Source: Spirochaetia bacterium (GTDB lineage Bacteria; Spirochaetota; Spirochaetia; SZUA-6; Bin103). From it: 64,000 nucleotides of DNA. The position numbers were made by a program, and so were the translations under genes. Where the stretch lies: the NCBI GenBank assembly GCA_965203905.1, contig CBDBDQ010000005.1:6848001-6912000 (forward strand), written 5' to 3'. This document shows, in pieces, positions 1,205 to 47,577 of this stretch. Position 1 is the stretch's first letter. Every line of letters begins with the position of its first letter. The notes under the pieces are model-generated. The model was not told the DNA's origin and ran no database searches. It saw only the letters and a list, made by a program, of their open reading frames with translations.

Positions 1205-1236
1205 CCTGACGGCAGCACTCGACAAGGAGGAGCACC

Positions 1237-2565: not shown

Positions 2566-2610
2566 GAGTCTGTCGGATTGGCGCGTCAGCGGCAGGTCCG
2601 ACAGGACTCC
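2565..2610. terminator. inverted repeat between convergent genes (terminator-like hairpin or MITE-like remnant)
   Basis: GGAGTCTGTCGGA ... TCCGACAGGACTCC directly after the stop codon. Confidence 0.4.
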
Positions 2611-2718
2611 GTACGGTAGGCGGGGCTGGGCCGAAAGCGACGCCGCAAGGCGGCGGTTTCGGGGCGCTAGCACCGCGGAAGTTCGGCGTTCGCAGGAACT
2701 CTTCGATCGGGTAGGTCC

Positions 2719-3576: not shown

Positions 3577-4021
3577 ATCGGCATTATAGCGGTGGCCGGC
3601 GTCTATATCTCGTCCATCCACACCACCCGCTCGGCGGCGGAATCGGAGCTCGGTGCGTCACTGCCCACGCCACCCCGGGTACGCGAGCGCCGATGCGCGT
3701 AGCGAGTCGCAGGAACGACGCCGCCACTTCCATCGGATTGCGGGATCGGGCCGTCCGCTGCTGGGAACCGCTCGCTCCATGCTGCTCTCCGTGGCGCAGC
3801 CCTGGCCGGGGGAGCCCCGATGACGCTGGCCGACCACGTTCTGACCCATGCCACGTTCAAACGAGGGAGGGGTAGGTTGACAACCCACGGATACGCTCTA
3901 CACTACTTTTCGGTCTGTCCAACCGACCGGGGCCACCACCGAGCAACGCGATGGTGGAAAAATATTGAGGGGTCTTCGGGATGACACACGGAAAACGGCG
4001 TCAACGTGACGCGAAGATTTC

Positions 4022-4849
4022 ATGAGAAAAGCAGATCTGCACCTACACACGCATGCGTCGTCGGACGCATCGTTCGATCCGGAGGAGGTCTTCAGTATCG
4101 CCAAGGCACGAGGACTGACCGCGTTGACCTTCAGCGACCACGACAACACCGACAGCACTGCGGAAGGCCAACGGCTTGCGCCCATATACGACGTGGCGTT
4201 TCTGCCGGGCATCGAGATCACCAGCTCCTGGCGCGGGGAAGAGGCCCACGTCTTGGGCTTTTTCCTCGATGGCCCGCTTCCTTCTCTGGCCGATTTTCTG
4301 GTTAACAAAATCTGGTCGGTGAGAAGACAGTACAATCTCGCCGTGCTCGAATACGTGCAGAGGCAAGGCACCGGAGTGACCATCGCTGAGCACGAGGCCA
4401 AGGTGGTGGGTCAGGAACGTTCCGAATCGACGGAGTTGTATCAGCTGCTGCTGAAAAAAGGCGTTGTGTCGAGTCAGAGAGCGTTTATGGCCTTGCGAAA
4501 GGAGTCCGGCGTCCTGCTTCGCAAGCCGCCGATTCCGGAGGCCATCCAGGCTTGTCACGAGGCTGGCGGCATTGCTGTGGTGGCTCATCCCGGCCATGAT
4601 ACTGGGGCGGTTTTCACCTTCGACGAAGACAATCTGGCTGCTCTGGCCGCCCAAGGACTCAACGGTGTTGAGGTGTCCCATCCCGCGCACACCGAGGCCC
4701 AAGAGGACCATTACGCACAGATTGCAGATCGCCTGGGACTGGTCAAGACCGGTGGTTCGGACATGCACGTACCCCGCCCGGAGCCTCAAAAACTGGTCGG
4801 CGGCACGTACTGCGACTGGGATGAGGTGCTCCAGTACCTGCAACGCTAG
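4022..4849 (+). CDS. PHP-domain phosphoesterase
   Basis: DLHLHTHASSD, SDHD, GIEI, AHP and GGSDMH motifs. Confidence 0.9.
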   Translation: MRKADLHLHTHASSDASFDPEEVFSIAKARGLTALTFSDHDNTDSTAEGQRLAPIYDVAFLPGIEITSSWRGEEAHVLGFFLDGPLPSLADFLVNKIWSVRRQYNLAVLEYVQRQGTGVTIAEHEAKVVGQERSESTELYQLLLKKGVVSSQRAFMALRKESGVLLRKPPIPEAIQACHEAGGIAVVAHPGHDTGAVFTFDEDNLAALAAQGLNGVEVSHPAHTEAQEDHYAQIADRLGLVKTGGSDMHVPRPEPQKLVGGTYCDWDEVLQYLQR

Positions 4850-4925
4850 TCCCTTGTGACGGTTCAGTAGCAAGTAACTCGATCCGAGTCGAATCCCTCG
4901 GTCCGTCGCGCCTGGCAGATTTCGA

Positions 4926-5963
4926 TTATTCTTGTACTCCCAGAAGATCAAGCGTATCGGCAAAATGGCAGGCTACGTAATGGGCATGTTCTTCATCAGC
5001 ACTGATATTCATAAAGGGAGGCTCTCGATCTTTACAAATCGTTTCAGCATACCTACAGCGCGGATGGAAATAACACCCTGACGGAGGATTGGCCGGATCA
5101 GCAATATCGCCTTCCAGCAGCATCTTCTCCTTCTTGTACCGTGGATCGGATTTGGGCACCGCCGATATCAGAGCTTCGGTATAAGGATGTTTGGGATTGA
5201 GAAACAACTCGTTCTTGGGGGCCAGTTCGACTATCTTGCCCACATACATGATCGCCACCCGGTCACTGACATACCTCACCGCAGCCAGACTGTGGGCAAT
5301 GAAAAGATACGTCAAATGAAGCTCGTGTTGCAGTTCTTTCAAGAGATTCAAGACCTGAGCCTGCATGGAGACGTCCAGCGCAGATACCGGCTCATCAGCG
5401 ACAATGAATTTGGGTCTCAGAGCCAGCGCCCGGGCGATGGCGACCCGCTGTCTTTGACCACCACTGAAGGCATGTGGATACCTATCCATATACTCAGGAT
5501 CAAGCCGTGCCATCTCCAGCAGGGTGGCGACTTCGTTTCTCAGATCTCGCCTGTTGGCAGTGATCTTATGAATAATCAAGGGCTCGGCCACGATATCCAT
5601 GATCGTCATGCGCGGGTTCAGCGACGAGTAGGGGTCCTGAAAGATCATCGCCATACTCTTTCGCACTTCCCTGAGCTCATCCCTATCAAGACCGGCCATA
5701 TTGATTGGTTTCTCGTCCCTGCTCATTTGAAAGGTAACCTCACCGGCGGTGGGTTCAATCGCGCGCAGGATACATCTTCCCGTGGTGGTCTTACCACAGC
5801 CACTTTCTCCAACCAAGCCCAGGGTCTCGCCCTCTTCAATGAAGAAGTTGATCCTGTCCACTGCTTTGACCACACCCACAGCTCTTTTTCTCAGGGCGCC
5901 CCTGGTACGAAGAAATTCCTTTTCTAGATCCTTTACCTTGAGCAGGATATTGCGATCGTTCAT
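4926..5963 (-). CDS. oligopeptide/dipeptide ABC transporter ATP-binding protein (OppF/DppF-like)
   Basis: [25 protein letters not shown]; C-terminal HPY and GCxFHPRC. Confidence 0.95.
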
Positions 5964-5970
5964 CAGGTCC

Positions 5971-6972
5971 CTATTCGTACAAGAAACAGGCCACCTTGTG
6001 GCCCTTCTCCACTTCCGCAAACGGCGGTTCCTGGTTGTCGCATAGCCCCTCCATGAACTGGGGACAGCGACGATGAAACATGCAACCCTTTGGTAAATCA
6101 TAGGGTGAAGGGAGCGAGCCGGTCATCGGAATGATCTTCTCATCCGGGTCAGCCGTTAGCTTGGGAATCGAATGGAGCAATCCCTTGGTATATGGGTGGA
6201 GGGGATTATGGAAGATTTCATCTACCGAGGCATGCTCCACATCTTTGCCCAAATAGAGCATGATAAGCACCTTGTCTGCTAACTCGGCAATGACTGCCAG
6301 ATCGTGTGTGATGATAATGAGGCCCATGTTCAGCTCTTGCTGCAGGTCCTTGACGAGACTCAAGACCTGGGCCTGAATCGTCACATCAACGGCCGTGGTC
6401 GGCTCATCAGCAATAAGCAGACTGGGCTGACAGGAAAGAGCCATAGCGATCATCGCTCGCTGGCGCATTCCTCCGCTCAAGTTGAAAGGATAGGCATCGA
6501 TCATCTCCGCCGGTTTGGGCATCCCGACTTTTCTTAACAGCTCAACCGCCCTACTCTTCGCGGCAGAGCGCGAGAGCTGTTGATGCAGCCTGACGACTTC
6601 CACGATTTGACTGCCAATGGTGTGAACGGGTGAGAAAGAAGTCATCGGCTCCTGAAAGATCATCGCGATCTCGGCTCCCCGGATAGCCCGCATCTCCTTG
6701 CCGTCGGGATTCAGCTGCACGAGGTCGACAAATCCTCTGTCATGCAGGTTAAAGAGGATCTTCCCGCCCACGATCTTGCCCCCCTGGGGGACAAGTCGCA
6801 GGATGGACTGGGCAGTAATACTCTTTCCGCAGCCACTATCTCCGACGATCCCGAGGGTCTCACCCCGCTTCAGCTCAAAACTGGAGTCATCCACGACTTT
6901 GAGCGTTCCTTCTTTTGAGGAGAAATGGGTCTTCAGGCCCTCAACCTTCAATAGCACATCACGGTTCTGCAC
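5971..6972 (-). CDS. oligopeptide/dipeptide ABC transporter ATP-binding protein (OppD/DppD-like)
   Basis: [27 protein letters not shown]. Confidence 0.95.
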
Positions 6973-6982
6973 CTCGCTCTCC

Positions 6983-8122
6983 CTAGATGTTAGAATACGG
7001 ATCCGCCGCGTCCCTAATGCCATCGCCCAGGAAGTTAAAGGCCAAAACAGTAACAATCACAAATATCCCCGGGATAAGCGTCCACGGCGTCTGCGCGAGT
7101 ACTCTTATTGACTGGGCGTCACTGAGCAGCACACCCCAGCTAATCGCCGGAGGCTGTAGCCCGAGACCCAGGAAGCTCAAACCAGTCTCTCCCAAAATCA
7201 TACCCGGAACAGATAGAGTTAAGGAAGCAATAATATAGCTATAAAAGGAAGGCAGCAGATGCTTGAAGATGATGCGAGAGCGACTCGCGCCGTGCAGGCT
7301 CGCTGCCATAACAAAGTCTTCCTCCTTCAGCGCCATGAACTTTCCCCTAACCACCCGAGCCAGCCCCGTCCAGCCTACCAAGGAAAGGATAATGACGATT
7401 CCGAAGTAGACGCTGACAACAGACCAATACGGCGGCAGAGCTATACTCAAAGCCATCCACAACGGTAACGTAGGAATAGACTGAATGAACTCTATCGCTC
7501 TTTGAATGATAACGTCCGCAGCTCCCCCGTAGTATCCAGAAACACCGCCAATGGTAATACCCAGGATAAAGCTGATTGCGATTCCCAACAATCCGACTGA
7601 TAGAGATAGCCGGCCGCCGTAGATCACGCGAGAGAACAGATCTCGGCCGAACTTGTCCGCGCCAAAGATCAGCACCCTCCCTTCCCTCGTCCCGAACAGA
7701 TGAATATTACTCTTGAATGCTCCCCATAGCTTATAGGAGTCCCCAATGATAAAAAGGTAGATATGATCCCGCTTCATTTCATCTTCAATATACGTCGTGG
7801 CTAGAGTCTCCATATTCAACACGCCTTCAATCCTATACACAAAGGGACGCAGATGAAAGCTACCCTCCGCATCCACGAAACGCACGCGTTGAGGAGGAGC
7901 GTTCACGTAATCGACATCAAAATCGAGAGGATCGTAGGGAGCAGTGAATTCAGCGAAGATGGCGAACAGATACAACACCAACAGCACCGCCAAAGCCCCA
8001 ATGGCCAATTTGTGTCTGAAGAACTTCCAGCGAATAAGCTGCCACTGCGAAGCTACAAACAGTCTCTCTTGTTCAGCAGCCCGTTCATTTTTCTTGCGAT
8101 TTGTTGGCGTCAAAGAAAGCAT
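6983..8122 (-). CDS. ABC transporter permease (OppC/DppC-like)
   Basis: GADKFGRDLFSR, EAA-like loop, LSFLGLG, GDGIRDAADP. Confidence 0.95.
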   Translation of the reverse strand: MLSLTPTNRKKNERAAEQERLFVASQWQLIRWKFFRHKLAIGALAVLLVLYLFAIFAEFTAPYDPLDFDVDYVNAPPQRVRFVDAEGSFHLRPFVYRIEGVLNMETLATTYIEDEMKRDHIYLFIIGDSYKLWGAFKSNIHLFGTREGRVLIFGADKFGRDLFSRVIYGGRLSLSVGLLGIAISFILGITIGGVSGYYGGAADVIIQRAIEFIQSIPTLPLWMALSIALPPYWSVVSVYFGIVIILSLVGWTGLARVVRGKFMALKEEDFVMAASLHGASRSRIIFKHLLPSFYSYIIASLTLSVPGMILGETGLSFLGLGLQPPAISWGVLLSDAQSIRVLAQTPWTLIPGIFVIVTVLAFNFLGDGIRDAADPYSNI

Positions 8123-8192
8123 CTTCAGCAGCGCCCGGAGAAGTTAATCGGCCGGTGGCTAATTCCTCCCAAAATCAGGAACATCCGAAATA

Positions 8193-9182
8193 TTAGATAG
8201 ATTCCTTTATTCTGGGATCAAGCCAGGCCAACAAAATATCCGAAATAAGCGTCCCTATCACGGTAAGCACGCTCAGAATAAAGACGATACTCCCGGCTAG
8301 CCACATGTCTTGACTCAGGAGAGATTGGAATAGAACGGGGCCAATCGTGGGGAGGCCCAACACCAGAGAAACAAACACCTCACCGCTTACCAGCGCCGGT
8401 AGCACCCAACCTATAGTACTGACAACAGGGTTGATGGCGATACGAAACGGGTACTTGTAAAGGACCCTTCTCTTGGTGAGCCCCTTTGCCCGCGCCACCA
8501 GTACGTAGGGTTTCTGGAGCTCGTCCAGAAGATTGGCTCTCATTACTCTTATCAATCCGCAAGTACCTGCGGTTCCTATGATTACTGCCGGCATCCACAG
8601 ATGCTGGAGCATATCCAGAAATTTGGCAAGGCTCCATGGAGCAAATTGAAATTGTGGGGAAAACAATCCCAAAACAACATCGCCGGTATAAACGAAGTAC
8701 ACATATAGAAGAATAAGGGCAAATAGAAAGTTCGGAATTGCAATTCCAATGAATCCGAAGAAAGTGAACACGTAGTCTCTAATTGAATATTGATGCGTGG
8801 CTGAGGTGGTTCCTATGGGAATGGCAACCGCGTATACGAACAACAGAGAAACAAGGGAAATAAGTACGCTCCAGGGTAACCTTTCAGCAAGAATTCGGCT
8901 TACTGGTTGATTCCATTGCATGGACCGGCCTAGATCGCCCCGAAGCAGCCCCCCTATCCACTTGAAGTACTGAACATACATGGGTTGCCCAAGTCCGTAA
9001 CGGACTCGCAGCGACTCCACTTCCGCATCATCAATTATCTGATCAAGAGCACGCAACTGAGCGACATAGGCGTCCAGGTAGTCACCAGGGGGAGCTTGAA
9101 TAATGATGAACGAAAGAACGGTTATGGCGATCACGGTAGGAATCATCAGCAAAAATCTACGAATAATGTATCGTATCACCAC
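8193..9182 (-). CDS. ABC transporter permease (OppB/DppB-like)
   Basis: YIIRR, PPGD, GDLGRS, ARAKGL, LDPRI. Confidence 0.95.
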   Translation of the reverse strand: MVIRYIIRRFLLMIPTVIAITVLSFIIIQAPPGDYLDAYVAQLRALDQIIDDAEVESLRVRYGLGQPMYVQYFKWIGGLLRGDLGRSMQWNQPVSRILAERLPWSVLISLVSLLFVYAVAIPIGTTSATHQYSIRDYVFTFFGFIGIAIPNFLFALILLYVYFVYTGDVVLGLFSPQFQFAPWSLAKFLDMLQHLWMPAVIIGTAGTCGLIRVMRANLLDELQKPYVLVARAKGLTKRRVLYKYPFRIAINPVVSTIGWVLPALVSGEVFVSLVLGLPTIGPVLFQSLLSQDMWLAGSIVFILSVLTVIGTLISDILLAWLDPRIKESI

Positions 9183-9348
9183 AGCCTGCCGTTGATGGCG
9201 CTTCTGGATAAGGACGGGACCTCGTTCGTTGCTTTAGGAGAGCTCCTGAAAGAAGAAACCTGTTCGCACTTCCTCTTCTCCAATAGTTCTCCCTTGCTCG
9301 GCCAACGAGCTATTTGATCTCCTACCTTATCCCGACATCATGCTCTGA

Positions 9349-10551
9349 CTACTCAGGGCGAGTAACCTGCACGGGTTTCACCTTGATAGCCTTGTGAATG
9401 TCGCCGTCGGTGTCCTCGTGGTCGAAATCCGAATATATGACAAGAAAGCGGTCAGGGCCGGTTGCCCACAGTTTGCTGTAGCCGCATGTTTTCAGTCGGG
9501 GGGACTCCTGGTCGCCCGGGTGAACCACGTATGGCTCCGTCCACTTCTCGCCATTCCCGTCATATGAGAACCTGAGTTCTACCCCCGGCCGGCCGTACGA
9601 AACAACGGTTACTCCATTTTCCAGCGTCAACAGCTCTGGTTCAACGCCGAAGGAGTTAAGTACGTTCGGGTTGCTCCAGGTGAAACCATCGTCTTTTGAG
9701 GTGCTGGTAAACAGATTACGCGGATCCTTGCCCTCATCGGAGCGCAATACACAGACCAGCGTACCATTCTTGAGACAGGTAAGCGTGGGTTCATGGAGCC
9801 CCCACGGAGCCTGATCGGGAATATACGCCACGGTGGAACGTAGCCGCCAGCTTCTGCCCTTGTTGGTGGAAGCGAGCAGGTACATCTGGGACTCGCCGGG
9901 CAGCACCTTGTTGTTTTCATCCACCCGCACAGCCCCCATTGTGTAACATAGGGTTCCGTCAGATAGCTCCACGCACTGAGTCCAGGTCAATTGCAGGACC
10001 AATGTATGAACATTGCCGGCCAGTTTGAGCCATCCCTTGGAAGTCATGGTCCGGGTCATTGCTTTAACGCAGAGTCGTGGAATCTCCAGAGGGGCAATTA
10101 CTTCCTCTTCGGTGTTGCTTCCAGGCTGACGTATGAGTACCTTGATTCCCTTCATATCTTCAGGAAGATCCTCATAGAGGTATACGTTTGACGTATTCCC
10201 CTTGGAGTACTCTCCTACCTGCTTGATGTCAATTTCCTTGGCAGGCCGCTTCGGACGCTTTACCGACCGTATTTCGGTCCCGTCACGAAGCACTCTCGCA
10301 TGTTGCAGAGCGCCTTTATCGGTGAATTTCTCCCATGTTCTGCCGCCGTCATGGGTAATCAAGTAAGGAGACGGTTGCCGCTCTCCTGCATCATCGTGGG
10401 AGTCATCTCCCACCTTGCAACTTGCGACTAATTCTCCCCGCTTGGTCTGCCAGAAATGAGGAAATTGATAGAATCCCCACCGTCGTTCTTCACTCGGGCC
10501 CATGGTAACCACTACTGGTTCACCCATTTCGACCTTCACCGCGTTGTCCAT
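9349..10551 (-). CDS. BNR/Asp-box beta-propeller, sialidase-like glycoside hydrolase, no signal peptide
   Basis: Four Asp-box-like motifs (THDGGRTW, STNKGRSW, SKDDGFTW, SYDGNGEKW) and CGYS near the C-terminus. Confidence 0.75.
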   Translation of the reverse strand: MDNAVKVEMGEPVVVTMGPSEERRWGFYQFPHFWQTKRGELVASCKVGDDSHDDAGERQPSPYLITHDGGRTWEKFTDKGALQHARVLRDGTEIRSVKRPKRPAKEIDIKQVGEYSKGNTSNVYLYEDLPEDMKGIKVLIRQPGSNTEEEVIAPLEIPRLCVKAMTRTMTSKGWLKLAGNVHTLVLQLTWTQCVELSDGTLCYTMGAVRVDENNKVLPGESQMYLLASTNKGRSWRLRSTVAYIPDQAPWGLHEPTLTCLKNGTLVCVLRSDEGKDPRNLFTSTSKDDGFTWSNPNVLNSFGVEPELLTLENGVTVVSYGRPGVELRFSYDGNGEKWTEPYVVHPGDQESPRLKTCGYSKLWATGPDRFLVIYSDFDHEDTDGDIHKAIKVKPVQVTRPE

Positions 10552-10713
10552 CTTGCCTCTTTCCCCACCCTCCACTGAAGCGTCCGTCCCATGAGTTGAT
10601 ACTACCTGCAACGTTGTGTGCCTCTGGAGCAACCCGTGATTGAAATCAGGGGCGACCCTGCATGTGACAGAGTCCCCCCTGCTGGGCCCACTTGGCAAGT
10701 TCTACGATATTCG

Positions 10714-12609
10714 CTAGTTCTTGAAAAACTGAGTGACGTAGGGACTCCTTAGCGTACCTACCTCAGCGAGACTCTCAGGTACATTTCCAAGCTGATTGGA
10801 AACCACGTAATAGGAGCCTAGAGCCGGTCGTCCAAGCATACCTATTACCCAGAAGTTCTCGGCCCATATTGCCAAGACTTCGTCCTCTAGAGCACGTCTT
10901 TGCGCAGGCTCCACTGTCGCGGGAAATATTCTGCCGATTTCTGACAATCGCTTCACTTGAGCCGGCGGTTCTTCTCCGGTTTCACCGTCAGATTTGAGCC
11001 AGTTCTCCCATGGTTTCGCCGAGAAGAACTCATCCCCCATCCCAGGAATGAAGTAACCACCTATCGGACTCGTTTTCCCCGTAGAGAAAGCATACATGAG
11101 CAGGTCGTAATCGCCGGATTTAATTTTCGCCACGGCCAACTCCACTGCGATAGGTCTAACTATCGCCTGGACACCCAGATCCTTCCAGTATCCTGGTATG
11201 AACTCTGAAATTGCCGCCGTGTTACCCCAGCCCCACTGGTTAATGGCGATCTGTATTCGTTTCCCATCCGAACGCAGACGATATCCTTCCGAGTCACGCG
11301 CGGTGAGGCCGATCCCGTCCAGGATCTCGTTTGCTCCGTCGGGATCGTACTCGGTGTAGGCTTTGGCATACTCTTCTCTATACCAGGGCGTTCCCTCAGG
11401 CATGGTTGCCTGCAAAACCTGACCAAACCCCTTATGAATTATCTGATTTATCTCATCTCTGTTTATGCCCATTGACAAGGCTATGCGGAAGTCCTTGTTG
11501 GAGAAGAGCTCTCGCTGTACAGGATCGTTATGAAGTATATTGAGGAACATGGCGCCATCGTTTGTTGCATCCGAATAACCAAATGCCACGCGGTAGTCTC
11601 CCGACGCCTGATTCTGTACTACGAGGGGATAGTTATCGACACCACCCAGCGCCTGGAAATCGGCGTCACCGGCGATACTCTTCAGTATACGTGCTTCCCC
11701 ATCACTCATGAGAATCCACTCAGACCTATCCATATAGGGAAGCTGATTTCCTTCAGTATCTACCTTCCAGAAATAGGGGTTCCGTTCCCAGATCTGCACG
11801 GGACTTCCCCAAGTCTGCTGGGGGATATAGGAATTCATGACTGGAAGATCAGAATTCCCGGCACGTTCGTCATACTTGGCCAAAAACAGATCTGACCAAG
11901 CACTGAAACCCTCTTTCTTTACCTGTTCATCTATCGTATCCCTCGGCGTATAGGCCGGATGAAATGTCTTTAGATGGTGTTCAGGGGCGAACAGTACGGG
12001 GTTCCAGGCATTTCCAACTCGGAGGGATACCCATCCAACATTGGCATTAGCGAAGCTAACAGTGAATCTATGGTCATCAATCCTGTCGAACTTCATCGTT
12101 TCATCACCGCTCTTGTAGAACCCAGGTACAAGCGGGGTGAGGGTTTCATTGGAGAATATATGCTCATACCAGAACATAACGTCATCCGTCGTAAACGGAG
12201 CGCCATCACTCCATTTCAGTCCTTCTCGCAGAGTAAAGGTGACGCTTGCGGCGTCGTCACTCCATTCCCAGCTCTCAGCTATGTTAGGCACACGAGTTTC
12301 ATATTCCCTCAGGTCGTTAGTGACTAAGGGCTCTTTGAAATATATCACCGTAAACCCAGTCTCGTTCATGGTGACTAAGTGGGTCCACGATCCTCCGTAT
12401 TGCCCAATCTCGTTTACGGGTGTCACTACCCGCGGGTTTAGCGGCAGTCTTTCTGCTACCGGGGGTAGCTCTCCTGCTGCCACCCTCTCCCTGAGCATAG
12501 GGGATTCGTTGTACTCTCCGTTCTGCCCAAAGAGCGGCATGCACAACAACAAACTGAAGAGCAAGACAATACCGAGAACCACGACGGGTCTCCTGTTTGA
12601 AGACTTCAT
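10714..12609 (-). CDS. ABC transporter substrate-binding protein, family 5
   Basis: Signal peptide; GELPPVAERLP, LKWSDGAPFTTDDV, RNPYFWKVDTEGNQLPYMD. Confidence 0.95.
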   Translation of the reverse strand: MKSSNRRPVVVLGIVLLFSLLLCMPLFGQNGEYNESPMLRERVAAGELPPVAERLPLNPRVVTPVNEIGQYGGSWTHLVTMNETGFTVIYFKEPLVTNDLREYETRVPNIAESWEWSDDAASVTFTLREGLKWSDGAPFTTDDVMFWYEHIFSNETLTPLVPGFYKSGDETMKFDRIDDHRFTVSFANANVGWVSLRVGNAWNPVLFAPEHHLKTFHPAYTPRDTIDEQVKKEGFSAWSDLFLAKYDERAGNSDLPVMNSYIPQQTWGSPVQIWERNPYFWKVDTEGNQLPYMDRSEWILMSDGEARILKSIAGDADFQALGGVDNYPLVVQNQASGDYRVAFGYSDATNDGAMFLNILHNDPVQRELFSNKDFRIALSMGINRDEINQIIHKGFGQVLQATMPEGTPWYREEYAKAYTEYDPDGANEILDGIGLTARDSEGYRLRSDGKRIQIAINQWGWGNTAAISEFIPGYWKDLGVQAIVRPIAVELAVAKIKSGDYDLLMYAFSTGKTSPIGGYFIPGMGDEFFSAKPWENWLKSDGETGEEPPAQVKRLSEIGRIFPATVEPAQRRALEDEVLAIWAENFWVIGMLGRPALGSYYVVSNQLGNVPESLAEVGTLRSPYVTQFFKN

Positions 12610-40548: not shown

Positions 40549-42952
40549 CTATTGCGCGACCTTGCTGCCGTCCACCTTGCGGCGTGGGTCCGCGGTCACC
40601 GCGACGTGCGCAAGTTCGGCATCGGTCGTGGGGTCGCCGGCGAGCGTGATGGTTCCGCCGTTGAGGGCCAGCGCGTCGGCCCGAATGCTAATCCCGTCCT
40701 CATCACGATCCGCCTTCTGCACCGTGTAGCTGAAGAACGCATGCCGGTCGGCCCAAGACCTGGAGTAGACCGCCTGTCGCGTCTGCGTCCCGATGGTCAG
40801 CGCCACCTGCGGACTGCCGGTCACCGTCATCGCTCGGTCGAACTCGACCAGCACCTCGATGGTCTCCCCGAGTTCGTAGGTGTCATCACGCGCTGAAGAG
40901 GAGACGAAGTAAATGCCCCTCACACCCGGTGGCGTGACCAGGCTGCCATCCACCTTGCTGCCGCGCTGGGCCGCTACCGCATCGTGCCTCAGATCTGCGG
41001 CGGTGGTGCCGTCGGCGGCCGTGATCGTGCCGCCATCGAGGGACAGCGCGTCGGCCGCGATGCTGATTCCGTCCTCATCGCGATCCCCCTCTTGCACGGT
41101 GTATTCGAAGTACAGAGTCTGATTGCCCCAGCCGCGGAGAGCCGCATACCGCGTCTCCGTCCCGATGTTCAGCGCTACCTGGGGCTCGCCGGTTGTCTCC
41201 ACCGCTCCGTCGAACTCGACGACCACCTCGACCGTCTCGCCCAGCGCGTAGGTGTCACCCCGCGCTGGCGTGGAGTCGAAGGAGAGCGCCTGTACCCGCG
41301 GTGGCGTGATAACGTCGCTGCCGTCCACCTTCCCGTTACGCACGGAGGCTACCGCCGCGTGTGTCAGGACAGCGTCGGTTGTGCCGTCGGTGGCCGTGAT
41401 GGTTCCGCCGTCGAGGAGCAACGCGTTGGCCGCGATGCTGATTCCGTCCTCATCGCGGTCATCCTCCTGCACCGCATAGCTGAAGTATGCATATCGATCG
41501 TCCCCCCACGACATGGAATAGGCCGCGAGCCGCGTCTGCGCCCCGACGGTCAGCGCCACCTGGGGGGTACCGGTCACCGTCACCGTCCGGTCGAACTCGA
41601 CCTCCACCTCAACCGTCTCGCCCAGTTGGTAGGTGTCACCCCGCGCTGGAGATGAGAGGAAGAAGATGCCCCTCACCCGGGGCGGCGCGACCAAGCCGCC
41701 GTCGACCCTGTCGCCGCCCTCGGAGGCTACCGCCTCATGCGTCAGATCTGCGTGCGTCGTGCCGTCCGCGGCCGTGATGGTTCCGCCGCTGAGGGCCAAC
41801 GCGTTGGCCGGGATGCTGATCCCATCCTCGTCCCGATCACCCTCCTGCACGGTGTACTGGAAGTACAAGGAGTCACTGCTCCATCCGGAAGACATCGCGT
41901 AACGCGTCTGTGTCCCGATGGTCAGCGCCACCTCGGCATCGCCGGTTGCCTTCACCGCTCCGTCGAACTCGACCAACACCTCAACCGTCTCTCCGAGCTC
42001 GTAGGTGCCACCGCGCAACGGTGACGAGACGAAGGAAATGTCCCTCACCCGGGGTGGCGCGACATCGCGGCCGCCGTCCACCTTCCAGTCCCGCTCCGCG
42101 GCTGCCGCCACGTGCGTCAGGTCCGCGTCGGTGGTGCCGTCGACGGCGGTGATGGTGCCGCCGTTGAGGGTCAGCGCGTTCGCCGGGATGCTGATCCCAT
42201 CCTCATCCCGGTCATCGGCCTGCACCACGTAGCTGAAGGACAAGTCTCGGCCGTCTCCCCACGGGGAGTAAGCCGCCTGCCGTGTCTGCGTCCCGATGAT
42301 CAGCGTCACCTGCGGACTGCCGGTCACCGTCACGGCTTTGTCGAACTGGACATCCACCCGAATGGTCTCCCCCAGTTCGTAGGTGTCGCCCCTCGCCGGG
42401 AAGGAAACGAAGTAGACTTGCCGCACCACCGGTGGCGTGATCACGCTGCCGTTCACCTTGCGGCCGCCCTCGGCAGCTACCGGCCCGTGCGTCAGATCTG
42501 CGTCGGTCGTACCGTCCCCGGCGGTGATGGTGCCGCCGTTGAGGGTCAGCGCGTTGGCCGGGATGCTGATCCCGTCCGCGTCACGGTCCCCCGCCTGCAC
42601 GGTGTAGTCGAAGTACAGGGTCTGGCTGCCCCATCCAGAGAATGTCGCGTGCCGCGTCTCGTTCCCGATGGCCAGCGCCACCTCGGGATTGCCGGTCGCC
42701 TCCACGGCGCGGTCGAACTCCACTTCCACCTCGACCGTCTCGCCCAGTTCGTAGGTGTCGCCCCGCGCTGGGGAGTAGGCGAAGCGGACAGCACTCACCC
42801 GCGGTGGCGTAACATCGCTGCCGTTCACCTTGCTGAAGCCGGCGGCGGCCACCGCCTCGTGCGTCAAGACAGCGTCGGTCCTGCCATCGGAGGCCGTGAT
42901 GGTTCCGCCGTCGAGGCTCAGCGCGTTGGCCGGGATGCTGATCCCATCCTCG
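40549..42952 (-). pseudogene. repeat surface protein, 3' half (end of repeat 5 and repeats 6-11), IS-interrupted
   Basis: ~125-aa repeats: PP.V..F.SSPARGDTYELGE..V.VEFD..V..TG.PQVALTIG..F.YTVQ.GDRDEDGISI.ANAL.L.GGTI. Confidence 0.9.
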
Positions 42953-43080
42953 TCACGGTCGTAAACATTCGGTCTACCGGTGTGGGACCGCTGGACACAT
43001 CCGGACCGGTGTGCTACGAATGAGGTGTGGGAGGGTTCTGGCGGAAAACGAGTGGCTGCACGGCGGCGTGCCAGAGCCAG

Positions 43081-44652
43081 ATGGACGAGTTGCGGTGCGA
43101 GGTAGTAGAGCTGCGACGACAGGCGCGCTATTACCGCAGGATGCACGGCAAGGCGGTAGCGCGCGAGCAACGGCTGAAACAGAAACTGCAAGCGGCACGG
43201 GCCAAGCTCAAGGAACTGCGCCAGCGCCTGCGGGAACGCTGGGCACGGCGCCGCGGCAGCGAGAAGCGAACCAGGAGTGGCGGCGCTCCTGAGGCAACCG
43301 CCGCGCCACCGCGGCGCCGCGGTCAGCAACCCGGGGCGCCAAGCCATGGTCGGCGCCGGCACGCACACCTGCCGGTACAGGTTGAAGCACACGACGTTGC
43401 CCCGGACCGGCGCCGCTGCGCGGCCTGCGGCGCTGAGTATCATTCGCACGGCAGCGAGGATTCCGAGCAGTTGGAAGTCGAGGTGCGCGCCTACCGGCGG
43501 GTGATCAAGCGGCGGCGCTACCGCCGCAGCTGCCAGTGCACGGCGGCCGCGGCGGTGCTCACGGCGCCAGCGCCGCCACGGCTGATCCCGAACGGCATCC
43601 TGGGGATCTCGATCTGGGTGACGGTGCTGCTCGACAAGTATCTGCTGTACCGGCCCACGCATCGGTTGCTCGCGGATCTACGCACGCATGGGCTGGATCT
43701 TGCCCAAGGCACCGTCACCGACGGTCTGCGGCGTCTGGCGCCGTTGTTCGCGCCACTGCGCGAGGCGCTGATCGAACGCAGCCGCACGAGCGAGCACTGG
43801 CATGCTGACGAGACCAGCTGGCAGGTGTTCGAGGCGGCCAGCGAGGACACCTGCCAGCGCTGGTGTCTGTGGCTGTTCTGGAGTGCCGAGGTGGTGGTAT
43901 TCACGCTCGATCCAACCCGTTCGGCGCGGGTGCCGAAGCAGCATTTTGCGACCGTGACGGGGGGCGTGGTGAGCGTCGACCGCTTCTCCTCGTACAAGCG
44001 GCTGGCCAAGGATACCGAGCTGGAGTTGTCGTTCTGCTGGGTGCACATGCGCCGCGACTTCATCACGGTAGCCCATGAGCGGGACGATCAGCAGGAGTGG
44101 GCCGAGCAGTGGCTGGCTGACATCGCTACGCTGTATCGCCTGAACGACGAGCGTCTTGAGGTGCGTGGTGAGCCCGCGCAGTACGCGGCGGCCGATGCGG
44201 CGTTGCGGGCGGTGGTGCAGGCGATGGAAGAGCGACGAGAGCGCGAACTGGCGCAGCAGCCGAAGCTGGCGGCAGCGTGTGCGAAGGTGCTGCGCAGCAT
44301 GCGCAACCACTGGCAGGGGCTGACGCGGTTCGTCGAGGATCCCGACTTGCCGCTGGACAATAATCAAGCCGAGCGTGCGCTGCGCGGCCCGGTGGTGGGG
44401 CGCAAGAACTACTACGGCTCGGGGGCGCAGTGGAGCGGTGAGTTGAGCGCGGCGCTGTTCAGCCTGTTCCACACCCTCGAACGATGGCAGATCAACCCGC
44501 GTACTTGGCTGACCGAGTACCTGAGCGCCTGTGCGGTCGCCGGCGCTCGCGTGCCTGAAGACTACGAGCGGTTCCTGCCCTGGCACCGTCCCGAGGCGCG
44601 CTTGCTGCCCCGCGGCTCACCCGCCAAGCTGGTCGACGACCGTGCCGCCTGA
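43081..44652 (+). CDS. tnpC: IS66 family DDE transposase
   Basis: Coiled-coil N-terminus, CxxC zinc finger, HADET, VDRFSSY, CWVHMRRDF, DNNQAERALR. Confidence 0.93.
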   Translation: MDELRCEVVELRRQARYYRRMHGKAVAREQRLKQKLQAARAKLKELRQRLRERWARRRGSEKRTRSGGAPEATAAPPRRRGQQPGAPSHGRRRHAHLPVQVEAHDVAPDRRRCAACGAEYHSHGSEDSEQLEVEVRAYRRVIKRRRYRRSCQCTAAAAVLTAPAPPRLIPNGILGISIWVTVLLDKYLLYRPTHRLLADLRTHGLDLAQGTVTDGLRRLAPLFAPLREALIERSRTSEHWHADETSWQVFEAASEDTCQRWCLWLFWSAEVVVFTLDPTRSARVPKQHFATVTGGVVSVDRFSSYKRLAKDTELELSFCWVHMRRDFITVAHERDDQQEWAEQWLADIATLYRLNDERLEVRGEPAQYAAADAALRAVVQAMEERRERELAQQPKLAAACAKVLRSMRNHWQGLTRFVEDPDLPLDNNQAERALRGPVVGRKNYYGSGAQWSGELSAALFSLFHTLERWQINPRTWLTEYLSACAVAGARVPEDYERFLPWHRPEARLLPRGSPAKLVDDRAA

Positions 44653-45538
44653 GGCGGTGCGCTACTGCGGCCGGCCCTTCAGCGAGCAGGAGCTGCAGTT
44701 GATCCGCGCGCTCATCGCTGAGGACCCTACCCGCCATCGGTTCGCCCTCTCGAAGGTGGTGTGCGAACGGCTGCACTGGCGGCGTGCCAACGGACAACTG
44801 AAGGACATGAGCTGTCGCGTCGCGATGCTGCGCATGCACCGCGACGGGCTCATCCGGCTGCCGGCGCCGCGGCGGCGTCACTACAACGGCACGCTGCGCC
44901 GCCGTCGTACCGCGCAGGCGGAACCGGAGCTGCCGATCAGCGCCCGCGTCGATGAGCTGCCCGCGCTGCAGGTACGACCGCTGGCCGATCAGCGCGAAGC
45001 GCTCCTATGGCGCGAGTACGTGGACCGCTACCACTACCTTGGCTATACGCCGCTACCGGGTGCGCAGCAGCGCTACTTGGTCACCTGCCAGCGGCAGGTG
45101 CTGGCGGTGGTCGGCTTTGGCGCCAGCGCCTGGAAGGCGGCTCCTCGCGACCGCTTCATCGGCTGGAGCGTTGCCCAGCGCGAAGCGCGGCTGCACCTGG
45201 TGGTGAACAACGCCCGCTTCTTGATCCTGCCTTGGGTGCAGGTGTGCAATCTCGCTTCCACCGTGCTGGCGCGCATCAGCCGCCGGCTGCCCGCCGACTG
45301 GCAGGCGCGTTATGGGTACCGACCGCTGCTGCTGGAGACCTTCGTGCAGTCCGACCGCTTCGCCGGTACCAGCTACCGCGCCGCCAACTGGACCCACGTC
45401 GGACAAACCCAAGGACGCGGCAAACTCGACGTACGTCGAATGCACACGCTGCCCACCAAAGACATCTGGCTCTACCCGCTCAGGCGCGACTTCCGCCGTC
45501 GACTGTGCGCTCCTCTTGATCCGCCCCCCAACCTGTAG
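44642..45538 (+). CDS. DUF4338 (DruA-like) protein
   Basis: RYCGRPF, YHYLGY, RDRFIGWS, VVNNARFLILPWV..NLAS, LETFV..RFAGTSYRAANW..VG.T.GRG; start 44642 or 44657. Confidence 0.85.
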   Translation: MPPEAVRYCGRPFSEQELQLIRALIAEDPTRHRFALSKVVCERLHWRRANGQLKDMSCRVAMLRMHRDGLIRLPAPRRRHYNGTLRRRRTAQAEPELPISARVDELPALQVRPLADQREALLWREYVDRYHYLGYTPLPGAQQRYLVTCQRQVLAVVGFGASAWKAAPRDRFIGWSVAQREARLHLVVNNARFLILPWVQVCNLASTVLARISRRLPADWQARYGYRPLLLETFVQSDRFAGTSYRAANWTHVGQTQGRGKLDVRRMHTLPTKDIWLYPLRRDFRRRLCAPLDPPPNL

Positions 45539-45551
45539 ACCGAATACTTAC

Positions 45552-47407
45552 TCACGGTCCCCCGTCTGCACGGTGTAGTCGAAGTACAGAGTATGGCTGC
45601 TCCATCCTGAAAGTGCCGCGTGGCGCGTCCGCGTCCCGATGGTCAGCGTCAACCGGGGCTCCCCGGTTGCCTGCACCGTGGCGTCGAACTCGACGACCAC
45701 CTCGATTGTCTCACCCAGTTCGTAGGTATCACCGCGCGCCGGGGAGGAAATGAAGGAGATGCCCCTTACTCGCGGCGGCGTGACATCGCGGGTGCCGTCC
45801 ACCTTGACGGCATGCTCCGGTGCTACCTCCCCGTGCGTCAGTTCGGCGTCGGTGGTACCGTCCCCGGCCTTGATGGTGCCGCCGTTGAGGGACAGCGCGT
45901 TGGCCGGGATACTGATCCCGTCCTCGTCACGGTCACCCTCCTGCACCGTGTAGCTGAAGGGCACGTGCCGGTCGTCCCCCCACGACCTGAAGTAGGCCGC
46001 GTACCGCGTCTCGGCCCCGATGGTCAGCGCCACCTGGGGACTGCCGGTCACGGTAACCGTCTTGTCGAACTCGACGACCACTTGAACGGTTTCCCCAAGC
46101 TCGTAGATGTCGTCCCCAGCCAGCGGGGAACCGAAGTAGACACGTTTCACCGCCGGCGGCGAGTCCAGGCTGCCGTCCACTTTCCGGCCGCGGTCAGGAG
46201 CTACCGCCGCGTGCGCCAGGTCGGCATCGGTGGTGCCGTCGAGTCCCTTGATGGTTCCGCCGTCAAGGGCCAGAGCGTCGGCCGGGATGCTGACCCCGTC
46301 CTGGTCCCGGTCCGCCTCCCGCACGGTGTAAGCGAAGAACAGAGCGCGAGAACTGCCCCATCCCGAAGCGGTTGCCTGGCGCGTCTCCGTTCCGATGGTC
46401 AGCGCCAACCGTGCCTTGCCGTTTGCCGCCACTGTTCTGTCGAACCGGACCAGCACCTCGATCGTCTCTCCACGTTCGTAGGTGTCGCCCTTCGCCGTGG
46501 AGTTTACAAACGAGATGTTCTTCACCGCCGGCCGCGAGACCAGGCTGCCGTCCACCTTGTGGCCGCCCTCGGCGGCTACCGCCGGGTGAGTCAGATCGGC
46601 GTCGGTGGCACCGTCCGGTCCCTTTATGGCTCCACCGTTGAGGACCAGCGCGTTCGCAACAGTGCTGATTCCATCCTCGTCACGGTCCGCCCCCTGCACG
46701 GTGTATTGGAAGGACAGAGAGGGGTGGCTGCCCCAACCCCAGGAGGCCGCCTGCCGCGTCTCCTTCCCAATGGTCAGCGCCAACTGCGGACGGCCAGTCG
46801 GCGTCACTACTCTGTCGAACTCGACTACCACCTCAACCGACTCGCCGAGTTCGTAGGTATCTCCCTTCGCGGGGGAGGAGGTGATGGAGAGCCGCTTCAC
46901 CGCCGGTGCCGAGATCAGGCTGCCGTCTACCTTGTAGCCGGGCGCGGCCGCTACGGCCCCGTGTGTCAGATCCGCCTCGACCGTGTCGTCGGCGGCCTTG
47001 ATGGTTCCGCCGTTGAGGGTCAACGAATTGGCCGCGATGCCGATCCCGTCTTCATCACGGTCCGTCTCCTGCACGGTGTAGTCGAAGTACAGTGACGGGC
47101 CGTCCCGCGAAGCAAACCTCGCGTGCCGGGGCTGCGTCCCGATGGTAAGCGCCACCTGGGGACGGCCGGTTGCCTTCACCGCCCGGTCGAACCGTACCTC
47201 CACCTGAACTCTCTCACCGCGTTCGTAGGTGTCACCCCGGGCCGGCGAATCGTGGAACGTGATGGCAGAGACCGCGGGCACGGCGCTCTGGGCGTGAGCG
47301 ACGGTTGCTGCCGCCGCGAACACGAGCACGCAGCAGAAGCCGATCAGCCCTCGAACCGTCGTCCTGTCGGCGCACAGCGGCGCCCATCGGGTAAGGCAAG
47401 GAGTCAT
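45552..47407 (-). pseudogene. repeat surface protein, 5' half (signal peptide and repeats 1-5), IS-interrupted
   Basis: Signal-like LVFAAAATVAHA-QS followed by the same repeats; joins in frame with the 3' half once the IS and one TSD are removed; start uncertain. Confidence 0.9.
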
Positions 47408-47577
47408 GACAGACCACACTACCGCGATCCATTGCCAGTAGTCATGCTCGTAGGCGATACGATGGCGCACTCTTGCGGCTGACCGGCAGAAATCCTCTGG
47501 ACCGCCGACGTACCAGGCATGGCGAGGCCTGGCGTGGCGCCCTTCGCATTGACAACGCAGATTACGTATAGTTGAGC

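Follow-up and report, generated by a model that had tools for sequence, protein, structure and literature searches.

Related Systems

Canonical IS66 elements carry the three genes tnpA-tnpB-tnpC, and the rules of the family include an 8-bp target site duplication (TSD) and GTAA as the usual terminus. The roles of accessory proteins in insertion sequences are few and mostly understood, being those of ATPase helpers, regulators, and TnpB/IscB nucleases. IS66 TnpB, IS21 IstB, and the passengers of IS91 and ISKra4 elements share with the gene described below a position as second gene inside the terminal inverted repeats (TIRs) and co-evolution with the transposase. To our knowledge, none of them is a GNAT/Mom-like enzyme, and none has been found common to six transposase families.

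The present element shares the transposase family, the end sequences, and the duplication length with canonical members such as IS66 and IS679, but it lacks tnpA and tnpB; a single fragment of tnpB (PF05717) was found in this genome, outside the element. Closer to it is the ISBst12-type group (ISBst12, ISDge4), with which it has in common an IS66 DDE transposase, an 8-bp TSD, imperfect GTAA TIRs, and the absence of tnpA and tnpB. In PMC12898284, this group is described as having a single ORF, and ISDge4 as having 8-bp repeats, GTGA/GTAA ends, and one ORF. In contrast, the element reported here harbors a second, conserved, and coupled gene that is Mom-like. For ISKra4 elements, Guerillot et al. 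(PMC3942029) note four with genes of unknown function.

Mom of phage Mu is an anti-restriction enzyme. It has been known since 2026 to be tRNA-dependent, transferring glycine from Gly-tRNA to the N6 of adenine in dsDNA, and H58, Y59, R111, S124, D149, R151, and Y159 have been proposed as its active-site residues (PMC13219725). Mom and the DUF4338 protein encoded by the element share the GNAT fold and the motifs H-Y, N-x-x-S, F-[AV]-D..R, and G..Y.A.N[WF]..[VI]G. However, Mom has an essential HTH-like insertion, whereas the DUF4338 protein is devoid of it and has an unrelated N-terminal domain. Mom is a phage gene under Com control, while the DUF4338 gene is an insertion sequence gene coupled to a transposase.

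Structure and Boundaries of the Element

The window, which is the whole 64,000-nucleotide stretch of Spirochaetia DNA that was analysed, harbors an insertion sequence of 2591 bp on the + strand, with TIRs and a TSD that were read from the sequence. Its features are as follows.

42953..42960, no strand: TSD, left copy, 8 bp, TCACGGTC
42961..42981, + strand: left inverted repeat (IRL), starting with GTAA, 18 of 21 positions identical to the right end, same boundary in six copies
42961..45551, + strand: complete insertion sequence, 2591 bp, six copies identical over positions 1-2591
43027..44652, + strand: tnpC, IS66-family DDE transposase, 541 aa (Pfam PF03050, NCBIfam NF033517)
44642..45538, + strand: DUF4338 ("DruA" Pfam family) gene, 298 aa (Pfam PF14236, 164 bits)
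45531..45551, - strand: right inverted repeat (IRR), enclosing the DUF4338 stop codon TAG at 45536-45538
45552..45559, no strand: TSD, right copy, TCACGGTC
40549..42960, - strand: downstream part of the interrupted host gene, a large protein with repeats of ~100 aa and weak matches to bacterial Ig-like domains (Big_10, 1.8e-6)
45552..47470, - strand: upstream part of the interrupted host gene (Big_10, 1.7e-6)

The left end reads GTAAACATTCGGTCTACCGGTG from 42961 and the right end, up to 45551, reads GTAAGTATTCGGTCTACAGGTT as its reverse complement, such that both ends open with GTAA. The sense strand encodes two genes, tnpC and the DUF4338 gene, and the remaining ORFs are antisense or overlapping frames in DNA of 64% G+C. 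From the IRL to the start of tnpC there are only 66 bp, with no tnpA or tnpB upstream. The host ORF at 40549..43662 continues from host DNA into the element, and the one at 45548..47470 terminates just within it; deletion of the element in silico restores a single ORF of at least 997 aa across the insertion site.

The genome harbors six copies of the element with 100% identity across the whole 2591 bp. Their TSDs are all 8 bp long and all different (TGCCTTCC, AACGACGA, TCACGGTC, TCTCGGAG, AACGCAGC, and GATCCGCA). The element is far beyond chance, because six identical copies are each flanked by a distinct 8-bp direct repeat. No TSD consensus was found across the six copies. Two of the insertions are in the middle of ORFs (~1000 aa), three are no more than ~50 codons from where a stop-to-stop ORF begins, and the sixth is at the end of an ORF. 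The element is an intact, recently mobile IS66-family insertion sequence without tnpA or tnpB. An earlier sequence-only reading had described the TIRs, the 8-bp TSD, two genes, and a stop codon in the right TIR, all of which are confirmed from the sequence.

Two contigs from public metagenomes bear on mobility. In one (run X7), position 42952 is joined to 45552 in what is an empty site; the join skips 2599 positions (2591 + 8), eight letters at the joint fit both sides, and the short side is only 28 nt. The other, of 601 nt (run X5), contains a head-to-tail junction leading from 45551 through seven letters to 42961, with a short side of 140 nt. The junction and the empty site come from one assembled contig each, at low depth (9.8 and 3.6). 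The junction suggests copy-out-paste-in transposition by way of an intermediate that is either circular or tandem. A search of the literature on IS66 with circle or copy-out terms found no IS66 circles.

The TnpC Transposase

TnpC scores 296 bits (cut-off 180) with the NCBIfam model of the IS66 transposase (NF033517), covering model positions 1-386 of 387, and matches Pfam PF03050 (DDE_Tnp_IS66) at 9.9e-60. A coiled-coil-like stretch is found at its N-terminus. Among 26 aligned TnpCs that are paired with DUF4338, the invariant residues are D261, D318, and E449 as well as four cysteines, C131, C134, C169, and C171. In related genomes, such paired TnpCs score ~290-316 bits against the family model, compared with ~420-444 for other IS66 transposases. 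Complex prediction for TnpC (26-row alignment) and the DUF4338 protein (63-row alignment) gave 0.00 in both runs and is uninformative on binding either way.

The DUF4338 Gene and Its Place in the Element

The DUF4338 gene is in frame +1 and starts either at GTG 44642, overlapping the end of tnpC by 11 nt, or at GTG 44657, which is 4 nt past the tnpC stop and yields a product of 293 aa. The frame is open from 44531, and no slippery-site evidence was found for a programmed frameshift to a TnpC-DUF4338 fusion. The stop codon is located 14-16 nt from the end of the element. The protein matches Pfam PF14236 with 4.5e-48 and 164.4 bits (cut-off 27), residues 66-264 aligning with model positions 3-225 of 297.

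Among the 80 loci that best match this particular DUF4338 protein, a sample biased to its IS66-linked clade and spread over many phyla, 58 have an IS66 tnpC directly 5′ on the same strand. The spacing in these 58 loci ranges from -7 to 159 bp, and their TnpCs are 33-85% identical. A tnpB is present nearby in one of the 58 and absent from the other 57, in accordance with the distinct two-gene IS66-type organization lacking tnpA and tnpB that had been proposed. The further wording of that proposal, that DUF4338 stands in place of TnpA and TnpB, is too narrow; four related loci are arranged as tnpA-tnpB-DUF4338-tnpC, and the gene accompanies other transposase families. In these four loci DUF4338 stands between tnpB and tnpC, so it has entered IS66 elements in at least two configurations. 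A DUF4338 gene is absent from many IS66 and ISKra4 elements of related genomes, so it is dispensable for the transposition of these families in general.

The two genes diverge together. Over 25 non-redundant pairs, the co-phylogeny check gave a Mantel r of 0.78, a value reached in none of 2000 permutations, and 10 of 22 tree splits are shared (random mean 0.15, maximum 2). Relative to the 88.7%-identical L018 element, dN/dS is 0.19 for the DUF4338 gene and 0.25 for tnpC; the former is thus under purifying selection no weaker than that acting on the latter. In three genomes of the same genus, 12 of 12 close TnpC homologues carry the DUF4338 gene, contrary to the concern that such homologues might mostly lack it. 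The tnpC-DUF4338 pair is both widespread and old. The DUF4338 gene belongs to the element, as had been claimed: it lies inside the TIRs, its stop codon is in the IRR, it co-diverges with tnpC, and it is under purifying selection. The DUF4338 gene is covered by contigs of one metatranscriptome (run X17), including a 151-nt contig identical to it, and tnpC by hardly any; these are contigs, to which relatives also contribute, and the library may contain DNA.

The Mom-like GNAT Domain

The DUF4338 protein consists of a small N-terminal helical domain (~1-67), a linker, and a Mom-like GNAT domain (~99-290), and its AlphaFold2 model has a pLDDT of 93.6. When the model is compared with the PDB by Foldseek, the best match is Mom (8bv8_B, E 8.5e-6), at modest TM-scores of 0.41/0.58. 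There are 170 matches at E<=0.001, and all of the top matches listed are GNATs; the ordinary GNATs SpeG and RimI rank behind Mom with nearly equal E-values. The Pfam Mom family (PF25680) is matched by 29 of 63 DUF4338-family members at E<=1, with a best value of 1.7e-6, whereas canonical GNAT/acetyltransferase Pfam families are matched by none of the 63 at the same threshold. The protein of this element has no PF25680 match at E<=1, and a sequence-profile search of the 63-row alignment against all PDB chains gave no match at E<=1.

Sequence identity between DUF4338 and Mom is 16-19%. The hhalign alignment of the two is colinear over 154 columns, at a probability of only 6.9%. In that alignment, six of the seven proposed Mom active-site residues are aligned with residues conserved in the DUF4338 family. 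Mom H58, Y59, and S124 correspond to H131 (63/63), Y132 (52/63), and S206 (61/63), R151 and Y159 correspond to R239 (51/63) and Y245 (61/63), and D149 corresponds to position 236, which is D or E in 54/63 and Q in the protein of this element; R111, a residue that Mom cannot do without, falls in an alignment gap. The loop past strand 4 reads N-L-A-S, and its conserved serine is the residue aligned with catalytic S124 of Mom. R192, E232, and W250 are invariant among the 63 members. The HTH-like insertion of Mom (~175-209) is opposite a gap when the profiles are aligned, and only a short inter-strand loop is present there in the model. The sequence-only reading had pointed to a resemblance to Mom and GNAT proteins on the basis of the motif ETFV..RF.GT.YRAANW..VG.T; this motif does align with Mom QSFADERCGR.GVVYQA.NF..IG, and the fold and Pfam searches bear the resemblance out. 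No solved structure or Pfam family is closer to the predicted GNAT domain of the DUF4338 protein than phage Mu Mom. We regard the anatomy of the element and the Mom kinship of its protein, taken together, as nearly certain.

The N-terminal domain is conserved and, folded alone, has a pLDDT of 82.5. It has no PDB match at E<=0.001 (best E 1.3), and its weak top matches are winged-helix regulators; its identity as a wHTH is a guess.

DUF4338 with Other Transposase Families

A second insertion sequence of this genome, from the ISKra4 family, is present in five copies with 9-bp duplications and has its own DUF4338 gene. The ends of the two elements are unrelated, reading GTAAACATTCGG... in the IS66 element and GGGTGCGGCTC... 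in the ISKra4 element. All 11 DUF4338 copies of the genome sit in these two insertion sequences, with different flanks, and none is near Druantia genes.

In 40 related genomes, the DUF4338 family has 53 matches, and its distribution is patchy and multi-copy; two genomes of the same genus, G007 and G009, gave none. Seventeen of these matches adjoin IS66 transposases, 12 adjoin ISKra4 transposases (plus three weak or fragmentary cases), 12 are frames of fusion length, and only one is in a Druantia locus. DUF4338 is also found fused in a single ORF to transposases of the IS66, IS4, IS630, and ISAs1 types, the ISAs1-type fusions retaining the GNAT part of the protein only. Among the 80 best-matching loci, one has an IS701 and one an ISKra4 transposase as neighbor. 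Either as a neighboring gene or as a fusion, DUF4338 accompanies transposases from at least six DDE families. In the literature on DUF4338, PF14236, and IS66/ISBst12, and in the accessible part of that on ISKra4, no account of a link between DUF4338 or Mom-like proteins and transposition was found. As far as this literature goes, a role of DUF4338 in transposition is undescribed.

Relation to DruA

DruA of type I Druantia shares with the DUF4338 protein the Pfam family PF14236 and a central block, G.(Q/R)LRY ... RD..IGW ... R..L. The type I Druantia locus of a same-genus genome (G005) is complete (DruD 434 bits, DruE 2017 bits), and its DruA scores 651.2 bits over 391 residues against the PADLOC DruA model (PDLC00002); the DUF4338 protein scores 16.3 bits (E 0.001) over 48 residues. 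The G005 DruA has 417 aa compared with 298 aa for the DUF4338 protein, and the similarity between them is limited to residues 138-231. At the positions of H131, Y132, R192, and S206, this DruA, the one true DruA compared, has S, L, Y, and G, respectively. The DUF4338 protein was considered as an orthologue of Druantia DruA and rejected on the basis of these scores and of the absence of a druB-druC-druD-druE neighborhood around any of its 11 copies.

Possible Functions

We lean toward the DUF4338 protein being an enzyme that serves transposition rather than cargo. It is hypothesized that the protein would be an active Mom-like transferase that cooperates with the transposase on DNA. The transferase would place an acyl or aminoacyl group on a base, with a charged tRNA or acyl-CoA as the donor, and the modified base would be located in the element ends, in the transposition intermediate, or in the target. 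The resulting mark may license, time, or protect transposition, a form of control that can be likened to Dam methylation, which gates IS10 and IS50. Taken as a whole with its mechanism, this explanation is tentative, and that the protein acts on DNA bases is slightly more doubtful still.

The DUF4338 protein could instead be an anti-restriction passenger, which would modify DNA genome-wide and thereby shield the replicon in new cells without taking part in the chemistry of transposition. Both the nearest structure and the nearest Pfam family are those of Mom, an enzyme with that very role (PMC13219725), and the patchy, multi-copy distribution among relatives and the RNA-library contigs over the DUF4338 gene, a mere hint of expression, are compatible with such a passenger. 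However, a free-standing genome-wide modifier ill fits the recurrent single-ORF fusions to four transposase families, and it ill fits a gene that strictly adjoins tnpC, is translationally coupled to it, diverges along with it, and ends within the IRR. Insertion sequences also cannot change cells by themselves. Among 50,697 phage records, no DUF4338-family match was found at E<=10 beyond five short ones at chance level (E 0.9-9), and 2 of 72,556 plasmid records have matches, with no named insertion sequence in either. We consider this explanation unlikely.

Less likely again is a protein acetyltransferase, an acetyl-CoA-dependent GNAT that would control transposition by acetylating a protein substrate, be it the transposase or a DNA-bending or replication protein of the host. 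The loop that is a glycine-rich CoA loop motif in canonical GNATs is replaced in the DUF4338 protein by N-L-A-S with its serine at the position of Mom S124, and the 63 family members show matches to Mom and none to the canonical acetyltransferase families. The fold itself accommodates such an activity, as polyamine and protein N-acetyltransferases rank just after Mom among the 170 PDB matches, and DUF4338 is labelled a GNAT domain in a published comparative study (PMC10853773).

The protein may also be a non-catalytic regulator, with the GNAT fold as a scaffold only, that serves as inhibitor, specificity factor, or assembly factor by binding to the transposase or to the ends of the element. 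A stop codon within the IRR is typical for genes with products that act at the ends of insertion sequences, and the conserved N-terminal helical domain, with its winged-helix regulators as weak top fold matches, would suit this role. Yet the residues aligned with the Mom active site are conserved in 51-63 of the 63 members, and three further residues, R192, E232, and W250, never vary; catalysis is favored because these residues are conserved in diverse members. Furthermore, DUF4338 proteins serve elements with unrelated ends, and the ISAs1-type fusions have dispensed with all but the GNAT part. A purely regulatory role is therefore improbable.

Mobile phage-defence cargo, in which DruA would act in or seed a Druantia-type system, had been among the earlier suggestions and is very improbable; the Pfam family is named for DruA and a complete type I locus exists in a same-genus genome, but the PADLOC score, the confinement of similarity to one central block, the residence of 11/11 copies in two insertion sequences with differing flanks, and the occurrence of a Druantia locus with 1/53 matches in relatives all speak against it.

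The reading of the DUF4338 protein as an enzyme of transposition has a broadest form, which we put forward as speculative and unlikely in its entirety. In elements from six or more transposase families, a Mom-like enzyme would use a charged tRNA or acyl donor to write a base mark on the element's own ends, the excised intermediate, or the target, tying transposition to an epigenetic mark that the element itself encodes and perhaps also to the translational state of the cell, and DruA would be a diverged relative recruited to defence.

Significance

The repeated association of a Mom-type enzyme with six unrelated transposase families, often as a fusion, would point to an undescribed general step in bacterial transposition. 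The chemistry of Mom supplies a concrete, bench-testable hypothesis for the DUF4338 family, which comprises 9,615 clusters at 50% identity. The finding is relevant as well to DruA, which is the first gene of type I Druantia and is uncharacterised. No functional study was found in the literature naming DruA, and papers on DruA or Druantia mostly deal with type III systems, which are without DruA. If the broadest form were true, type I Druantia would have in DruA its long-missing "self-marking or sensing" component. Among proteins of 285-300 aa, thousands that are labelled "DruA / Druantia" are probably products of insertion sequence genes rather than of defence genes, and counts of defence systems that rest on PF14236 alone would be inflated.

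Element anatomy and mobility

The element at 42961-45551 is a live IS66-type insertion sequence that carries tnpC and a DUF4338 gene. Direct reading of the sequence bears out what the sequence-only reading had described, namely its boundaries, end repeats, target duplication, and two sense-strand genes.

Features of the element (window coordinates)
42961-45551: whole element, 2591 bp
starts 42961: left end, reads GTAAACATTCGGTCTACCGGTG
ends 45551: right end, reverse complement reads GTAAGTATTCGGTCTACAGGTT
42953-42960 and 45552-45559: direct repeat TCACGGTC, one copy per side of the element
43027-44652, + strand: tnpC, 541 aa
start GTG 44642 or GTG 44657, stop TAG 45536-45538, sense strand, +1 frame: DUF4338 gene

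The left end and the reverse-complemented right end match at 18 of their first 21 positions, and the DUF4338 stop codon lies within the right repeat, as had been claimed. The tnpC product matches Pfam DDE_Tnp_IS66 (9.9e-60) and the NCBIfam IS66 transposase model (296 bits, cut-off 180), and the DUF4338 product matches Pfam PF14236, currently named DruA (164 bits, cut-off 27). The first GTG overlaps the tnpC stop by 11 nt and the second is located 4 nt past it; the later start fits because the N-terminus of many homologues is M-R-Y-C-G-R. The DUF4338 frame is also open for 37 codons 5′ of the first start codon (44531-44652, overlapping the tnpC end in the +1 frame), and public gene calls of ~90% identity include 413-502-aa “PF03050+PF14236” proteins. 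An occasional TnpC-DUF4338 frameshift fusion is conceivable; true single-ORF fusions are known elsewhere.

In the 7.99-Mb genome (five contigs), the full 2591 bp is present six times at 100% identity, each copy being bracketed by an 8-bp direct repeat of different sequence. The copy in the window interrupts a very large minus-strand gene (40549-47470) whose product consists of ~100-aa repeats with a recurring DRDEDGISIPANAL.LNGGTI and has weak bacterial Ig-like (Big_10) hits as its only Pfam matches; with this composition, the product is probably a repeat protein of the cell surface. In-script removal of the element yields a single ORF of at least 997 aa across the insertion site. A second copy (L002) likewise sits midway along an ORF of ~975 aa.

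Evidence from sequencing runs for the empty site and the junction consists of assembled contigs throughout. In run X7, a 310-nt contig connects 42952 with 45552, omitting 2599 bases, with eight letters compatible with both sides. The omitted length is that of the element and a single duplication copy, which, together with the eight shared letters, is the signature of an uninterrupted site, albeit with thin support (depth 3.6, short side of only 28 nt). In run X5, a 601-nt contig (depth 9.8, 140 nt on the short side) leads from the right end, 45551, through seven other letters to the left end, 42961. The contig joins the two ends head to tail, the arrangement of IS circles and tandem dimers, and derives from a variant of the element, since its right part has 24 differences from the window. 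A literature search found no paper on IS66-family circles; “copy-and-paste” behavior has been described for ISDge4, a single-ORF IS66 member (PMC12898284).

Elsewhere in the genome (L007, G000:C5:5847930-5851584, at ~1500-2140), a related element survives as a decayed remnant that is 69% identical across the 3′ end of tnpC and the opening 123 codons of DUF4338; it records an earlier invasion, by a different lineage. Among the runs that hold the stretch or parts of it, several (X5, X8, X11, X13, X17, and X20) carry a coral, coral-reef, or sponge metagenome label (of these, contigs were compared for X5 and X17 only).

The tnpC-DUF4338 pair across phyla

Nine aligned family members served as the query in a scan of a single genome from each species, and the best 80 loci out of 485 relatives were retained. 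These loci are the best matches to the DUF4338 protein of the window, such that its own clade is over-represented. Their hosts are Acidobacteriota, several Pseudomonadota classes, Bacillota, Chloroflexota, Nitrospirota, Planctomycetota, Spirochaetota, Actinomycetota, Verrucomicrobiota, Bacteroidales, and one ANME-2 archaeon, and many of the loci lie on 1.3-3.5 kb contigs, as with collapsed repeats. IS66 tnpC is immediately upstream on the same strand in 58 of these best 80 loci, with an intergenic gap of -7 to 159 bp and a TnpC 33-85% identical to that of the window; tnpB is near one of the 58.

Contexts of the other 22 of the 80 loci
IS66 transposase downstream: 9
divergent IS66 transposase upstream: 3
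weak IS4/IS1182/IS701-like ORFs upstream: 3
ISKra4 transposase downstream: 1
IS701 transposase downstream: 1
IS4 transposase, opposite strand: 1
no context assigned: 4

Four of the loci with a downstream IS66 transposase have the order tnpA-tnpB-DUF4338-tnpC.

The second gene is integral to the element and constrained, and its pairing with tnpC is old. Among 35 distinct TnpC/DUF4338 pairs, 20 of 32 splits are common to both trees (random mean 0.19; Mantel r 0.82). For 25 non-redundant pairs, the figure is 10 of 22 (random mean 0.15, maximum 2), and the Mantel r of 0.78 is reached by 0 of 2000 permutations. This comparison left out 41 of the 80 loci, in which one gene is truncated, broken, or rearranged, as well as four exact duplicates. 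A shared history is expected for adjacent genes of one mobile unit; the trees confirm it and show that the DUF4338 partner is seldom exchanged. In Acidobacteriota, loci L035, L037, and L038 are distant from L029, L032, and L045 in the TnpC tree (branches 0.27 and 0.46) and near them in the DUF4338 tree (~0.1), a discrepancy that may reflect partner exchange or recombination among related elements. With the L018 element (88.7% identical) as the reference, DUF4338 has a dN/dS of 0.19 and TnpC one of 0.25. The mean patristic distance is lower for DUF4338 (1.27) than for TnpC (1.75), making DUF4338 the more constrained of the pair.

Other transposase partners

Linkage and fusion of DUF4338 to six families of DDE transposase are recurrent. 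All 11 PF14236 matches in the genome of the window lie within insertion sequences, six in the IS66-type element and five in a second one of ~2.9 kb (ends GGGTGCGGCTCTTTT..., 9-bp duplications), which carries a 301-aa DUF4338 gene followed by a 537-aa ISKra4-family transposase (NF033572, 2.9e-86). The five copies of this second element (L009-L017; G000:C5 near 1284319, 5006073, 5379660, 5620375, and 7646932, all outside the window) are 98.9-99.5% identical, and one is truncated.

The family is present in 15 of 40 genomes from the order of the window. Outside the genome of the window, 53 matches were tallied (those listed at ≥54 bits minus the 74-bit G029:C85, plus the match in a 1305-aa frame, counted once). 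An IS66 transposase adjoins 17 of them (14 tnpC→DUF4338, 3 in reverse order), and an ISKra4 transposase adjoins 12, plus three weak or fragmentary cases. Frames of 604-654 aa hold another 12; the one examined is a GNAT part fused to DDE_Tnp_1_assoc and DDE_Tnp_1, an ISAs1-type architecture. This fusion (L102, G001:C1:1403500-1409000, at 1146-2957, minus strand) is a 603-aa ORF without the DUF4338 N-terminal domain, and 11 frames similar to it occur in G001, G004, G010, G019, and G020. A 519-aa tyrosine integrase gene lies directly upstream of it on the same strand. One match is a true Druantia DruA. The 1305-aa frame (G012:C1:1151949-1153307, in a genome of the same family) has neither IS nor Druantia architecture and may be a DndF-type fusion of the kind named in PMC10853773. 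The remainder are fragments or have no assigned context. In the same-genus genomes G001, G004, and G005, all 12 IS66 transposases scoring 292-316 bits, a range that includes the TnpC of the window (297 bits), have a DUF4338 partner; the many IS66 transposases at ~420-444 bits are without one.

An exhaustive profile-free search gave 9,615 clusters (50% identity) at E≤0.001. The ten longest among the matches listed are all single-ORF fusions: seven of DUF4338 then an IS4-type transposase, five of these with DUF4338 directly ahead of the IS4/Tn5 N-terminal DNA-binding domain; two of an IS66 transposase then DUF4338; and one of DUF4338 then an IS630 transposase. On a Thiodictyon plasmid, an annotated “ISAs1 family transposase” has the DUF4338 enzyme domain as its N-terminus.

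Fold and kinship with Mom

DUF4338 is a Mom-like GNAT whose pocket is conserved. It was previously labelled a GNAT domain in a comparative study that also noted the DndF fusion (PMC10853773). The AlphaFold2 model (63 sequences; pLDDT 93.6, pTM 0.87) has an N-terminal domain (~1-67) of two short strands and three helices, a low-confidence linker, and an alpha/beta domain (~99-290). Folded alone, the N-terminal domain has no significant relative among solved structures. The top solved-structure match of the model is phage Mu Mom (8bv8_B; E 8.5e-6, TM 0.41 by query and 0.58 by target length, 16% identity), with polyamine and protein N-acetyltransferases close behind (170 structure matches at E≤0.001). 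A protein acetyltransferase is thus among the rival readings; the fold by itself is insufficient, and it is the sequence evidence that singles out Mom. Scanned singly, 29 of the 63 members match Pfam Mom PF25680 at E≤1 (best 1.7e-6; the protein of the window is outside the 29), and none of the 63 matches a canonical acetyltransferase Pfam family at that threshold. A profile-profile alignment with 27 Mom-family proteins is colinear over 154 columns, starting at the H-Y motif and ending at the C-terminal Y-P-L...R..L, at an hhalign probability of only 6.9% (pairwise E 0.005).

According to Silva et al. (Nat Commun 2026, PMC13219725), the glycine that Mom attaches to adenine N6 in dsDNA comes from Gly-tRNA(Gly). 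The proposed active site of Mom comprises H58, Y59, R111, S124, D149, R151, and Y159, of which R111, S124, and R151 are essential (PMC13219725; residue numbers there are 10 higher than in the 231-aa record).

DUF4338 positions (conservation among 63 members) and aligned Mom residues, from the low-probability profile alignment
H131 (63/63): H58
Y132 (52/63): Y59
S206 (61/63): S124
236 (D/E in 54/63; Q in the protein of the window): D149
R239 (51/63): R151
Y245 (61/63): Y159

Mom R111 is opposite a gap; that strand has an invariant arginine, R192 (63/63), seven positions N-terminal to it. In contrast to Mom, in which it is essential, the HTH-like insertion is missing from DUF4338.

Defence cargo is a further rival. 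As a Druantia DruA, the protein was rejected, the PADLOC DruA model giving only 16.3 bits. A complete type I Druantia locus is present in G005 (L101, G005:C3:36000-55000, at 1505-12364, minus strand).

Genes of the Druantia locus L101
gene 1: DruA, 417 aa, 651 bits
gene 2: protein without match, at the place expected for DruB/DruC, 989 aa
gene 3: DruD, 361 aa, 434 bits
gene 4: DruE, 1904 aa, 2017 bits

The likeness of this DruA to DUF4338 is confined to residues 138-231 (hhalign probability 95%; BLASTP 24% identity over 132 residues), and it carries S, L, Y, and G where DUF4338 has H131, Y132, R192, and S206. This one pairwise alignment with one DruA suggests an active site that resembles that of Mom more closely in the IS-borne branch than in the defence branch.

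Proposed role in transposition

No paper that connects DUF4338/PF14236 with transposons came up in a literature search; Guerillot et al. (PMC3942029) note that four ISKra4 elements carry genes whose function is unknown. Besides the protein acetyltransferase and defence cargo, an anti-restriction passenger and a non-catalytic regulator compete with the reading preferred here, in which the DUF4338 protein would be an active transferase working with the transposase. The strongest argument that it acts in the transposition complex, and not at large, is the repeated fusion, notably N-terminal to the transposase's own DNA-binding domain. By analogy with Mom, the substrate of such a transferase would be a DNA base and the donor a charged tRNA or acyl-CoA, and its purpose would be the marking or protection of the ends, of the intermediate that bears the junction, or of the target.
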